From assembly GCA_964443495.1 (NCBI GenBank), contig CAYUCS010000001.1:535496-582319 (forward strand): a stretch of DNA of 46,824 nucleotides, read 5' to 3'. Of this stretch, positions 24,407 through 27,753 are shown in pieces; the stretch's first letter is position 1, and each line of letters starts with the position of its first letter. The position numbers and the translations under genes were made by a program. The notes beneath the pieces were generated by a model that was given only the letters and a program-made list of their open reading frames with translations, did not search any database and was not told the DNA's origin. Source of the DNA: an uncultured Gammaproteobacteria bacterium (GTDB taxonomy: Bacteria > Patescibacteriota > Patescibacteriia > Patescibacteriales > GWE2-39-37).

Positions 24407-24477
24407 GCTCAGTCTTAGGATAGTTTTACTGCTTAGACGAGTACGTATGCGCATTAAAAACTATCCTAAGACTGAGC
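24407..24477. repeat. Intergenic hairpin element copy A
   Basis: 21-bp perfect inverted repeat GCTCAGTCTTAGGATAGTTTT around core ACTGCTTAGACGAGTACGTATGCGCATTA. Confidence 0.9.
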
Positions 24478-24563: not shown

Positions 24564-24614
24564 TCAGCAGCCTTCTTTGCAGTGGTTTACCCCTGCGATA
24601 TTCAGTTTCCTCAT
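24564..24614 (-). CDS. Candidate 16-aa micro-ORF
   Basis: MRKLNIAGVNHCKEGC*, preceded by AAAGGAGGTGATCC (24630-24617), 14 nt complementary to the canonical 16S 3' tail. Confidence 0.4.
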   Translation of the reverse strand: MRKLNIAGVNHCKEGC

Positions 24615-24648
24615 TAGGATCACCTCCTTTCGTGGTTTCGGTGCCGGT

Positions 24649-24795
24649 TCAAGGGTTGCCGCCGTTGTGCGTCGGGCCATGGACCTGGCAGGTGTGATGG
24701 ATTAGCTCGCTTTTCTTGCGGTAGGTGCCGCAAGTGCAAGGCGCTTTCTTGACCGTAACGATCGGTGTGTGGTTGGAAAACGGACTTTTCGGCAT
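24649..24795 (-). CDS. Candidate 48-aa Cys/His-rich small protein
   Basis: MPKSPFSNHTPIVTVKKAPCTCGTYRKKSELIHHTCQVHGPTHNGGNP*. SD AAAGGAGG at 24807-24800. Starts 16 bp after the mnmA stop. Confidence 0.5.
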   Translation of the reverse strand: MPKSPFSNHTPIVTVKKAPCTCGTYRKKSELIHHTCQVHGPTHNGGNP

Positions 24796-24811
24796 TTCCC
24801 CTCCTTTGCTA

Positions 24812-25885
24812 TCAGGATATGATACCGCCGCCTATTACGGCGTCATCTTGGTAGAAGACTACGCTTTGCCCTGGCGTGATGGCGCGCTGGGGCGTTTTGA
24901 AATGAACATTATATGAATTCCCTGTCCGGTCAATCGTGACTTCGCAGGGTTTGTGGCGGTAACGGATAACGGCTTGGCAGTCGAATGGCACGGCCGGCTG
25001 CTCTCCGCTCCAGGAAATCTCGTTCACTTGGAGTCGGTCGCGGTAGAGCTCCGGGCCTTCGCCGTTGCTGGTAACATACAGTATATTTTTCGGATAATCA
25101 AATCCGGCGACATAAAAGGGGCCGATGCCGCCGATTTCCACGCCTTTGCGCTGACCAATGGTATAAAGCGGCAAGCCCTTGTGTTCGCCGACCGTCTGGC
25201 CCTCCAGGGTGATGATGGGCCCGGATTGGAGGTCGAGGTGGCGCTTCAAGAAGTCGTTATGGTCGTTCGAGCCGACGAAGCAAATCTCCTGGCTCTCCGG
25301 TTTGGAAGCAGTGGTCAGGCCGAAGCGCTCAGCCAGTTCCCTGACCTCGGGCTTGGTCAAGTTGGCCAAAGGAAAGATGATTCGCTTGAGCTTGTCTTCG
25401 GTCAAGGTGTAAAGGAAGTAGGTTTGATCCTTGTTCAGGTCTGTCGGACGGGCGAGTTGCAGATGTCCGTCGCGCTCGACGATGCGGGCGTAATGGCCCG
25501 TGGCGACGGCGTCGAAACCGAGTTCTTCTGCCTTCTTCAGGATCGCGTCGAACTTGATGTATTTGTTGCAGGCAACGCAAGGATTCGGCGTATTGCCCCG
25601 TTGATATTCAAGCAGGAATTCATCGACGATCTGCCGTTTGAATTGATCGTCGAGGTTGAGGGTATATAAAGGAAACCCCAGCTGGTTGGCGACTCGGCGG
25701 GCGTCATTGAATGATTCGACGGAGCAGCATTTGTTGGTTTGGGCTTGATTGAGGCTCTCCTCGGCCCAGAAATGCATGAAAATACCCATGAGCTCATGCC
25801 CCTGTTCCTTAAGCAAAGCGGCGGCGACCGAAGAATCCACGCCGCCGGACATCGCGATTATGATTTTTTTACCCTCATTTTGCAT
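24812..25885 (-). CDS. mnmA: tRNA 2-thiouridine(34) synthase
   Basis: AMSGGVDSSVAA PP-loop, TPNPCVACN..IKF, ATGHYAR, KDQTYFL, ESQEICF, GLPLYTIGQR, RAITPGQSVVFY. Confidence 0.98.
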   Translation of the reverse strand: MQNEGKKIIIAMSGGVDSSVAAALLKEQGHELMGIFMHFWAEESLNQAQTNKCCSVESFNDARRVANQLGFPLYTLNLDDQFKRQIVDEFLLEYQRGNTPNPCVACNKYIKFDAILKKAEELGFDAVATGHYARIVERDGHLQLARPTDLNKDQTYFLYTLTEDKLKRIIFPLANLTKPEVRELAERFGLTTASKPESQEICFVGSNDHNDFLKRHLDLQSGPIITLEGQTVGEHKGLPLYTIGQRKGVEIGGIGPFYVAGFDYPKNILYVTSNGEGPELYRDRLQVNEISWSGEQPAVPFDCQAVIRYRHKPCEVTIDRTGNSYNVHFKTPQRAITPGQSVVFYQDDAVIGGGIIS

Positions 25886-25913
25886 AAATGCTTTATACTA
25901 CATTATCCTATTC

Positions 25914-25941
25914 TTGACAAATCCTAGGATAATGTCATAAT
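25914..25941 (+). promoter_or_regulatory. sigma70-type promoter with no downstream ORF
   Basis: TTGACA (25914-25919), 16-bp spacer, TGt-CATAAT (25933-25941). Confidence 0.55.
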
Positions 25942-25946
25942 AGCAT

Positions 25947-26041
25947 TGCCGTAAACTTTGCTTTGCAAAAACCCGCTCCTTCCACCGCGAAGCAAAAAAC
26001 CCTCCTAGGGGTGCAGTCACCAGCTGCACCCCATTTTTTTT
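25947..26041 (+). ncRNA. Candidate ~90-nt small RNA
   Basis: Bounded by the promoter above and a GC-rich terminator GGGGTGCAG/CTGCACCCC + T8 (26008-26041). Internal stem TTTGCTT/AAGCAAA. C-rich loop. No ORF. Confidence 0.5.
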
Positions 26042-26044
26042 CAA

Positions 26045-26078
26045 AAACAAAAGCGACCCGTCTGGGTCGCTTTTGTTT
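26045..26078. terminator. Intrinsic terminator of the CAP-domain gene
   Basis: AAACAAAAGCGACCC-GTCT-GGGTCGCTTTTGTTT 15-bp inverted repeat. Confidence 0.85.
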
Positions 26079-26087
26079 GGTGTAATT

Positions 26088-27614
26088 TTAGAGAAGTATC
26101 AGTAAGGCTATCAGGCTCATGAAGCCGACGGTGCTGGCGATCAAGCGCGGGTGCTGCTTGTTGAAGGCGACAAAGATATTGAAGGTCAGTGCGACCATGG
26201 CCAGGAGCAAGAGCACGAGGTAATAAGATGACGTGAAGGAGAAAATCGAGGAAGTGACGCCCGGCTGGTGATTCTTGGCGTATTGGTACTGCTTGACGTA
26301 AGTGGTGGCGGTCGGCTTCAGATTGCTGGCGTTGATATCGGTATTGGTCTTATTGCCATCCTTGTCCCAGACCGTGAGCACGGCGGGTACGACCGCGTCA
26401 GCTGGGTTCGGCTTTTCGGTATAGATCAGCTGATTGGTGCCCCAGAGGCCGGAGTTGGGATTGATCAACTCAAGGTCGATGATGCGGCCGTTGACCGTGA
26501 TCTGAGCCTTGGTCGTTTCTTTTGGCACGAAGGCTTCGCTTTGGATCAGCAATTTGCCGGTCTGCGGCTGATTGATGAATAAGCTGACTTTCGGCTGGCC
26601 GTCGGCGGTAAGCTGCGGCTCTGCCGGCACGGCCGGCGTCGGAGCGATTTCAGTCTCTTTGACTCCGAGAACCTGCTCGGTCGGTTCGATATTGGCAATG
26701 ACAGGATTCAATTTTTGAGGATTAGCGGCGGCGGCCACGACCTTGCCCATCAGCTTCTTGGTTCTTATGGCAGGAGAATCGTTTTTGGCGATGACGCTCG
26801 GATCCGGTTTGGCGAAGAACTGGGCGACAAAGGTGGTGTCGGTGCCGTCATAGGCGCCGGCTACGCTCGAAACGCCGATTTCTTGGAATTCAGGATCGAC
26901 CAGGTTGGCGTAATGGGTCGGGCTTTGGCGCCAGCCCAGCATGACGTCGGCAGCGCTGGTGAAGCCCATGGCCAAGTTCTCGCCGGCGACGGCGTAAGGA
27001 TATTCAGCCATGGCGAGCCAATTGGAGAGGCCGACTTTTTCCGGGCTGATATGGGCAAAATACTGCTTGATGAGCATGTCCTGGGCCTTAAGGTAAGACG
27101 CCTGGCTTAGTCGTTGGCTGACCTTGAGCTCGTTCAGGTTGGCCTCGCGGCGGATTTGGTTGGTGAATTTGATGATCTGCTGGTTCTGGGCAGTCAGCTC
27201 TTCCGGAGCTAGCCAAGCTTCGACTGGGAAGCTGACCAGGATCAGGAGGGTGACGATCTTGATGACTACGGCCGAAGTGGCGTGGAAAGCCAAGCGCTGC
27301 GGATGCAGAGCGTGCGGATGGTAGCCGTTGCCCTCGTGCGGAATGAATAAGTCTTTTATCTTACCGGTCTTGGCATGAGGCTTGCCGACGGTAGCGTGCA
27401 GCTTCGAAGCTGGCGCTTTTTCGGCTGGAGCCTTGAGGTTGGCCAATGACAAAGCAGTCGGCACTGATGGTGCGACGGGAGCTTTGATGACCGGTTCGGT
27501 TGCGGTGAGATCTGCGAAGATGTCTTGCTTGGCGCTCGGCTCTTTGGTGAAAGTATCGAGCTTATTTTTTTCCAGCAAGAATTCCGCGAATGATAGAAAT
27601 TCTTTTTGTGACAT
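26088..27614 (-). CDS. Membrane-anchored CAP/SCP-domain protein
   Basis: FIPHEGNGYHPHALH then a TM helix. CAP motifs TNQIRREANL, KAQDM..KQYFAH, AGENLA, GWRQSPTHYANL...FQEIGV. Two C-terminal TMs. Confidence 0.88.
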   Translation of the reverse strand: MSQKEFLSFAEFLLEKNKLDTFTKEPSAKQDIFADLTATEPVIKAPVAPSVPTALSLANLKAPAEKAPASKLHATVGKPHAKTGKIKDLFIPHEGNGYHPHALHPQRLAFHATSAVVIKIVTLLILVSFPVEAWLAPEELTAQNQQIIKFTNQIRREANLNELKVSQRLSQASYLKAQDMLIKQYFAHISPEKVGLSNWLAMAEYPYAVAGENLAMGFTSAADVMLGWRQSPTHYANLVDPEFQEIGVSSVAGAYDGTDTTFVAQFFAKPDPSVIAKNDSPAIRTKKLMGKVVAAAANPQKLNPVIANIEPTEQVLGVKETEIAPTPAVPAEPQLTADGQPKVSLFINQPQTGKLLIQSEAFVPKETTKAQITVNGRIIDLELINPNSGLWGTNQLIYTEKPNPADAVVPAVLTVWDKDGNKTNTDINASNLKPTATTYVKQYQYAKNHQPGVTSSIFSFTSSYYLVLLLLAMVALTFNIFVAFNKQHPRLIASTVGFMSLIALLILL

Positions 27615-27753
27615 GTTGATATTATAGCAACTTTCGGCAAACCAGGCAAAGTCCGATAAACAAAAGGTTTGAAGCCGCTAATCGGCGAGGTTTTTCGTTG
27701 AAAAACAAGGGGTGTTGATATCTTATACTAAAAAATTTGTCGGAGGGTAATAA

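Follow-up and report, generated by a model that had tools for sequence, protein, structure and literature searches.

Small RNAs (sRNAs) with C/U-rich sequences that imitate the anti-Shine-Dalgarno (anti-SD) tail of 16S rRNA have been described in several bacterial groups. The "Cuckoo" or alpha-r14-type sRNAs of alphaproteobacteria, of which a genome usually has several copies, carry CCUCCUCCC loops, with the motif present in two or three loops of each RNA. RsaE/RoxS (RF01820), about 100 nt in length, carries a C-rich motif twice, and both copies pair with G-rich Shine-Dalgarno (SD) regions and block initiation complexes in an Hfq-independent manner; its first motif is located in a hairpin loop, and its second is unpaired between two stems (PMC6158497). 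The csRNAs of streptococci form two stem-loops with an unpaired anti-SD between them, and a block of translation initiation has been proposed for them. An anti-start codon CAU is present in 53 of 61 csRNAs, and the group is further marked by a conserved nonamer and by CiaR-dependent promoters (PMC3091779).

In the current study, we examined a candidate sRNA gene in a 46,824-nucleotide stretch of DNA (hereafter called the window; C1:535496-582319) from a genome of 1.41 Mb with 52% G+C. The host is an uncultivated Falkowbacteria-like (CPR/Patescibacteria) bacterium, as judged from near-identical MnmA proteins of its relatives, which NCBI lists under "Candidatus Falkowbacteria bacterium". CPR/Patescibacteria lack Hfq and ProQ and are mostly not cultivable alone. 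To our knowledge, and judging from a literature search, their regulatory RNAs have hardly been described. Neither Hfq nor ProQ was found in the genome that carries the candidate. We conclude that the locus probably holds a real sRNA gene. For the fuller statement, that this is a genus-restricted gene whose RNA masks SD sequences, mechanism included, we consider the case to be evenly balanced.

The candidate is similar to RsaE/RoxS in that a loop motif (GCUCCUUC), a linker motif (CCCUCCU), and a terminator are arranged in the same layout, and the genome lacks Hfq. However, we observed no sequence or covariance-model similarity to RsaE/RoxS, either at the gathering score in the window or at E <= 10 over positions 25850-26110. 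Moreover, the candidate's motifs are of the CUCCU type and hold the exact core of the 16S anti-SD, whereas those of RsaE are of the C-rich type. The two also differ in distribution, as RsaE is conserved across Firmicutes, whereas the candidate occurs in part of one genus of CPR bacteria, in a host where about 10% of genes have SDs. Because the layout is RsaE-like without a match to the family model, we propose a functional likeness and not membership in the family.

Like the csRNAs, the candidate has its anti-SD in an unpaired region between two stem-loops. Unlike the csRNAs, its linker (25997-26007; AAAAAACCCUCCUA) contains no CAU, its promoter follows the plain sigma-70 consensus and lies within a palindrome, and it has no Rfam match. 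It shares with the "Cuckoo" RNAs an anti-SD-like C/U-rich motif in a hairpin loop, a short length, and its own promoter and terminator. It differs from them in being single copy, in having one loop motif and one linker motif, and in matching no Rfam model. Since C/U-rich RNAs that mask SDs are a well-known kind, the value of the candidate would be that of a new lineage-specific member rather than of a new principle. A compact and conserved sRNA that imitates the anti-SD, set in a genome with SDs on only about one-tenth of its genes, would provide a simple, testable model of how reduced cells could regulate one class of mRNAs jointly.

Anatomy of the candidate sRNA gene

The candidate is located in a 202-bp spacer between two minus-strand genes: mnmA (24812-25885; tRNA_Me_trans domains, E = 1e-80) and a gene for a CAP-domain protein of 508 amino acids (26088-27614). 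Its plus-strand promoter, TTGACA-16-TGtCATAAT, has 11 of 12 matches to consensus plus an extended -10 element, and is the top match in a 3.3-kb scan. The -35 hexamer TTGACA spans 25914-25919, and the extended -10 element spans 25933-25941 (TG at 25933-25934, CATAAT at 25936-25941). Transcription is predicted to start at 25947-25949, 6 to 8 nt past the -10, by analogy with the mirrored promoter of mnmA (see below). An intrinsic terminator at 26008-26041 has a 10-bp stem (7 G-C) with a 5-nt loop at 26008-26032, followed by an A and a run of eight T residues at 26034-26041. The terminator of the CAP gene is a separate hairpin on the minus strand (26045-26078). The predicted transcript unit excludes this terminator as well as the mnmA start, and is intergenic and antisense to no gene.

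A first-pass annotation of the window had described a stand-alone, noncoding unit on the plus strand: a TTGACA/extended -10 promoter, about 90 nt without an open reading frame (ORF), and a strong terminator with T8 that is distinct from the CAP-gene terminator, all running opposite to the neighboring genes. Every part of this description is supported by our analysis; as for the ORF, none is conserved on either strand across the four copies of the unit that we describe below.

We also determined how often such an arrangement arises in the genome. It carries 37 promoters that have the TG and match the consensus at 11 or more of 12 positions, as well as 176 strong terminators. Among these, only three promoter-to-terminator units of at most 250 nt occur, compared to about 0.5 expected from random placement. 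One of the three units encodes a 31-amino-acid ORF. Separately, we note a second sRNA candidate, located outside the window at G000:C1:474136-474276 on the plus strand. This unit is 108 nt long, has a longest ORF of 11 amino acids, and does not carry a CUCCU motif. It is the sole other ORF-less unit in the genome that combines an 11/12-plus-TG promoter with a strong terminator.

Conservation and distribution of the candidate

Relatives were identified by a protein search with MnmA, which yielded sequences at identities of at least 90%, 82%, 81%, and 78%, and the corresponding contigs were then compared. The DNA runs underlying L119 and L122 are SRR28219347 and ERR15087771. The unit is present at the same mnmA/CAP locus in four copies: the window, L122, G002, and L119. 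All four have the identical -35 hexamer and a -10 element of the form TGnCATAAT. The copy in L122 (MnmA identity of at least 90%) is nearly identical to that in the window, from which it differs by the loss of 2 nt from the loop and by two terminator changes. The copy in L119 (MnmA identity of 82%) is clearly diverged. It has the promoter TTGACA-16-TGcCATAAT, the stem GUUGC[C]UUCA/UGAAGCAAC, GCUCCUUC in the loop, CCCUCCU in the linker, and a terminator formed by GGGGUACAGC/GCUGUGCCCC and followed by T8.

When the four copies are aligned, the stem arms, GCUCCUUC, CCCUCCU, and the terminator stand out as invariant blocks, and insertions, deletions, and other variation are seen in the 5' end, the flanks of the loop, and the spacers. 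Because the invariant blocks sit amid varying flanks, the constraint is likely to act on the RNA itself and to extend beyond the promoter alone. The first-pass annotation had made its proposal depend on conservation of the CUCCU motifs among homologs between mnmA and the CAP gene, and the motifs are indeed kept in all four copies.

The strength of this constraint can be gauged by comparing the window with G002. Between these two genomes, mnmA and the CAP gene have 81% DNA identity, their third codon positions are 58% identical, and the region 3' of mnmA is 48% identical. Compensatory changes accompany the divergence of the CAP terminator, for which the identity over 26041-26087 is 66%. The sRNA terminator, on the other hand, is identical at 33 of 33 positions, and the promoter region (25886-25941) is identical at 49 of 56. 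Given a neutral identity of 0.58, we infer a probability of about 1e-8 for 33 identical positions of 33. Conservation in relatives is thus a stronger argument for a real unit than the chance count given above.

These data bear on the possibility that the locus is a nonfunctional or decaying remnant, or a promoter-like site that lies next to a terminator by chance. A genome-wide expectation of about 0.5 such pairs and the patchy distribution of the unit within the genus are compatible with such an origin. However, the terminator is conserved far above the neutral level, and L119, with an mnmA identity of 82%, retains the architecture and shows compensatory changes. We therefore regard a remnant or a chance arrangement as very unlikely.

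The unit is absent at the same locus in two other members of the genus, L120 (81%) and G001 (73%). In both of these genomes, as well as in three other genera of the family, a single terminator lies between mnmA and the CAP-like gene. The contig of L121 ends before the spacer and is uninformative. Since the sRNA is missing in L120 and G001, it is dispensable. The base of the genus is unresolved in the MnmA tree, and on these sequences a single gain followed by loss looks the same as a later gain.

We also searched for copies elsewhere. BLAST found no paralog in the same genome, and a BLAST search of 60 relatives with the unit returned G002 as the sole match. Two covariance models, R1 (two sequences) and R2 (four sequences), were searched against 301 genomes of the order and 401 genomes of the class and yielded no further homologs, only weak matches. 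Upon inspection, weak matches such as those in L127 and L129 proved to lie within coding sequence or to be generic terminators. When metagenomes were scanned with MnmA, no relative closer than 54% identity was found, and phage and plasmid collections contained no match to the sRNA. The sRNA is confined to part of one genus and is therefore not a general feature of these bacteria.

Predicted fold and motifs that resemble the anti-SD

The 97-nt RNA has a minimum free energy (MFE) of -31.5 kcal/mol, with z = -6.3 relative to shuffled sequences. When folded singly, the four copies adopt a common architecture of hairpin, linker, and terminator. In the MFE folds of the four copies, hairpin 1 (25957-25996) has a continuous 10-bp stem, in which 25957-25966 pairs with 25987-25996, and a 20-nt loop. 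The first-pass annotation had predicted a stem of TTTGCTT/AAGCAAA that encloses an inner CGC/GCG pairing. The outer stem stands as part of the continuous 10-bp helix, but the inner pairing is absent from the MFE fold and is not conserved in G002 and L119.

Motif 1 (GCUCCUUC, 25975-25982) is located in the loop of hairpin 1, resembles the anti-SD, and is invariant in the four copies. Motif 2 (CCCUCCU, 26000-26006) is located in the 11-nt single-stranded linker between hairpin 1 and the terminator, contains the 16S anti-SD core CCUCCU, and is likewise invariant in the four copies when gaps are set by eye. Because the 3' end of the 16S rRNA is GGAUCACCUCCUUUCU, the anti-SD of this organism is canonical, and the cores of the two motifs (CUCCUU and CCUCCU) match it exactly. 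Motif 2 is unpaired in all four MFE folds, in agreement with the single-stranded CCCTCCT that had been predicted ahead of the terminator. Motif 1 is unpaired in three of the four folds and partly paired in that of G002. The earlier claim of exposed CUCCU-type motifs thus holds for conserved, unpaired parts of the RNA in the four copies, with this one partial exception. The partial sequestration of motif 1 in the predicted G002 fold is a point against SD masking.

Several sequence changes among the copies are consistent with the proposed stems. In alignment A5, 96% of cells are paired, compared to 35-53% when the structure is slid by one to three columns. Pair 76-92 of the alignment, in the terminator, is A-U in L119 but G-C in the other three copies, and two further terminator pairs change on one side only. 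The pair at the base of hairpin 1 is U-A in both the window and L122, whereas G002 and L119 have G-C there; an alignment gap hides this pair from the formal count. In L119, the inner stem is kept by means of a one-base bulge shift, with a change from G-C to A-U. In a formal test with these four related sequences, a single pair counts as changed on both sides, and the covariation score is attained by 91 of 500 shuffles. The formal covariation is weak because there are only four sequences and they come from closely related genomes. The compensatory changes are thus supportive of the stems as read from the alignment, but not statistically strong.

Coding, minus-strand, and known-RNA readings of the locus

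We considered whether the conserved sequence could encode a micro-protein or form a 5' leader on the minus strand. On that strand, the two motifs read AGGAGGG and GAAGGAGC, which resemble SDs, and a TTG or ATG follows within 7 nt in the window sequence. However, the four copies share no ORF on either strand, since no frame survives the indels, which are a 2-nt deletion in L122 and 1-nt changes in G002 and L119. Furthermore, the mnmA promoter is downstream of the motifs on the minus strand, 6 nt before the ATG, and the conserved promoter and U-tail are on the plus strand. A minus-strand leader or micro-ORF is rejected because no frame is conserved, and we judge any coding reading of this kind to be highly improbable.

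A search of the whole window with Rfam models at the gathering score returned nothing. At E <= 10 over 25850-26110, the hits (Phe_leader, sraL, and SpF36) were terminator look-alikes, all of them on the CAP terminator. The first-pass annotation had seen no hallmarks of SRP RNA, 6S RNA, or tRNA and had proposed a comparison with Rfam; no Rfam family matched, in line with that assessment.

One circumstance could nonetheless be taken to favor a diverged housekeeping RNA, either SRP RNA or 6S RNA: the models RF00169, RF01854, and RF00013 have no match anywhere in the genome. Against this, the same absence of SRP RNA extends to all 26 tested genomes of the order, whereas the sRNA occurs in part of one genus. 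Because the gap is seen across 26 genomes, it is a lineage-wide issue unrelated to an RNA of four genomes. The candidate also lacks a long closed hairpin and the SRP domain IV motif, and cmscan at E <= 10 placed neither SRP nor 6S families at the region. A housekeeping identity for the candidate is thus hardly credible. As a side observation, RF00169 (small SRP RNA) at E <= 1 had no match in this genome (G000) or in any of 25 relatives from the order, whereas it matched 13 of the 14 genomes used as controls, and neither RF01854 (large SRP RNA) nor RF00013 (6S RNA) matched G000. The SRP RNA of the order is either too diverged for the model or its first-look filter, or missing.

A mirror-image promoter that shares its -35 with mnmA

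The sRNA -35 hexamer overlaps, on the opposite strand, the -35 hexamer of mnmA (TTGTCA, 25915-25920). As read from the sequence, the mnmA promoter and start codon span 25883-25920 on the minus strand and consist of TTGTCA, 17 nt, TATAAA, 6 nt, and ATG, an arrangement that would make the mnmA mRNA leaderless or nearly so. The same promoter layout is present in G001, which does not have the sRNA. An 11-bp perfect inverted repeat, ACATTATCCTA/TAGGATAATGT (25900-25910 and 25925-25935), flanks the shared -35 and forms the core of an imperfect palindrome of about 58 bp centered on TTGA/CAA (window 25889-25947). As a consequence of this symmetry, the sRNA promoter TTGACAAATCC-TAGGATAATGT-CATAATAGCATT mirrors the mnmA promoter TTGTCAAGAA-TAGGATAATGT-AGTATAAAGCATT. 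The palindrome arms change together between species: those of L119 differ from those of the window yet match each other, with TGGCA..ATAATG on both sides. We also observed that the two promoters have one common -35 (TTGACAA/TTGTCAA), that the inverted repeat sits in the two spacers, and that a similar sequence, ..ATAA.AGCATT, follows each -10 of the mirrored promoters.

From its sequence, the sRNA promoter may derive from an inverted duplication of the mnmA promoter. Another possibility is that the two arms of the palindrome are bound by a dimeric regulator. The mnmA and sRNA promoters, which share the -35, may also be in mutual competition. If the first of these proposals applies, the mirrored promoter would be a concrete example of a possible route to a new sRNA gene.

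This arrangement raises the prospect that the function resides mainly in DNA or transcription and that the RNA is a by-product. The mirror promoter would then compete or be coregulated with that of mnmA, and the hairpin would serve as a second barrier to read-through from the CAP gene. On sequence conservation by itself, a function of the RNA cannot be distinguished from a role that the palindromic promoter region plays as DNA, and such a role is consistent with the shared -35, with the co-changing arms of the palindrome, and with the promoter and terminator being the most conserved parts of the unit. However, it leaves unexplained the invariant GCUCCUUC, CCCUCCU, and stem arms amid diverging flanks. 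In addition, G001 and L120 keep the mnmA promoter without a partner promoter. On the minus strand, the hairpin has no U-run in G002, so it does not qualify as a conserved terminator of read-through from the CAP gene. Overall, we find a role mainly in DNA or transcription to be unlikely.

SD usage and candidate target mRNAs

About 150 of roughly 1,300 genes in the genome (10-12%) have a positioned GGAGG, and this sequence is enriched about 5-fold at positions -20 to -5 of starts. The first-pass description of an "otherwise SD-less genome" is therefore roughly correct, with the qualification that these 10-12% of genes retain a positioned GGAGG. Upstream of first ATGs, TANWAT hexamers show a peak at a distance of exactly 6 nt (30 cases compared to about 9 in the background, genome-wide), which suggests leaderless mRNAs. 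Together, this peak and an SD usage of about 10% suggest that much of translation initiation in this organism is SD independent. Both neighbors of the sRNA candidate have such an arrangement, with TATAAT, 6 nt, and ATG for the CAP gene (27614-27626) and TATAAA, 6 nt, and ATG for mnmA (25883-25897), and both look leaderless.

Three mRNAs in the window that had been named in the first pass as SD led do have strong SDs: AAGGAGGAGGG before 1113, AAAGGAGGGG before 24795, and GAAGGAGGAGGAAG before 29069. Predicted duplexes of the sRNA motifs with these three leaders have energies of -14 to -16 kcal/mol, compared to -1 to -7 kcal/mol with the SD-less leaders of mnmA, CAP, tgt, and alaS. The conserved seeds are only 7-8 nt long and match SDs in general. 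Exact searches with the extended complements GGTGGAAGGAG, TAGGAGGG, and GAAGGAGCG gave nothing convincing at start codons, and no mRNA with longer, specific complementarity to the sRNA was found. Similarly, where AGGAGG occurs at SD positions, the next base is not biased toward the G that would be specific to the sRNA. The SD-led ORFs nearest to the candidate lie at 1.1-1.3 kb, which, given one SD-led gene per roughly 9 kb, is no closer than chance would allow. A genome-wide ranking of duplexes was uninformative because it is dominated by G-rich noise and false starts.

Proposed function

From these observations, we infer transcription of the sRNA, its action in trans, its action on SDs, and the identity of its target mRNAs. 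The proposed sequence of events is as follows. A strong sigma-70-type promoter, with its -35 back to back with the mnmA promoter, would drive an RNA of about 90 nt. Transcription would end at the intrinsic terminator, and the RNA would fold into one hairpin plus the terminator hairpin. The GCUCCUUC motif in the loop and CCCUCCU in the linker would both imitate the anti-SD tail of 16S rRNA, and the exposed motifs would pair with the GGAGG-type SDs of the mRNA minority (about 10%) that carries them. Pairing would block binding of the 30S subunit and may also lay the mRNA open to RNases. The RNA would act without a chaperone such as Hfq or ProQ, by means of G-C-rich seeds, as do RsaE/RoxS and the streptococcal csRNAs. 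In our assessment, the best reading of the sequence is an SD-masking sRNA that acts in trans, is young, and is specific to the genus, although this reading could equally well turn out to be right or wrong.

A real sRNA might also use its motifs for something other than SDs, for example, to bind or titrate a protein (such as one with KH, S1, or cold-shock domains) or another G-rich RNA. Consistent with such a role, no specific mRNA target for SD masking emerged, and the identity of the terminator between the window and G002 at all 33 positions, loop included, while the CAP terminator drifts, hints at a constraint beyond termination. Still, the terminator loop does differ in L119 and L122, and no candidate protein partner of the motifs was identified. 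Moreover, both motifs hold the 16S anti-SD core exactly, and their positions are those used by known SD-masking sRNAs. For these reasons, we consider an sRNA that is not directed at SDs to be improbable.

A more speculative and rather doubtful extension is that we are seeing a young riboregulator near its birth. In this scenario, mirror duplication of the leaderless mnmA promoter in one sub-lineage of the genus would have made a second, outward-facing promoter, and the resulting RNA of about 90 nt, in essence the anti-SD copied twice, would constitute a class-specific, chaperone-free translational brake in a genome where about 90% of genes are SD-less and many look leaderless. The brake would apply to the genes that do have SDs, such as small Cys/His ORFs and pilin-like genes, and would thereby govern how initiation is divided between the SD-dependent and the SD-independent mode.

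Conserved micro-ORFs and a hairpin element downstream of mnmA

The region 3' of mnmA contains two additional features. Micro-ORFs are present in the window at 24564-24807 on the minus strand, and also in L120 (3560-3860), L119 (2300-2540), and L022 (1340-1410). They are kept across the genus, including in genomes that do not have the sRNA, and G001 retains the second micro-ORF only. Their SDs are very strong, namely AAAGGAGGGG and AAAGGAGGUGAUCC, the latter being a 14-nt complement of the 16S tail. The encoded peptides have conserved Cys and His residues, as in ..HHTCP/QV.GPTHNGG.. and ..HCKEGC*. The SD-led micro-ORFs do not co-occur with the sRNA, as L120 and G001 keep ORFs without it.

Between the micro-ORFs and alaS, the window (24407-24477) and L119 (2630-2705) carry a long hairpin element. 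The corresponding spacer in L120 and G001 is without this element. In the two genomes that carry it, the hairpin combines a conserved core, TTTTAATGCGCATACGTACTCGTCTAAGCAG, with species-specific arms.
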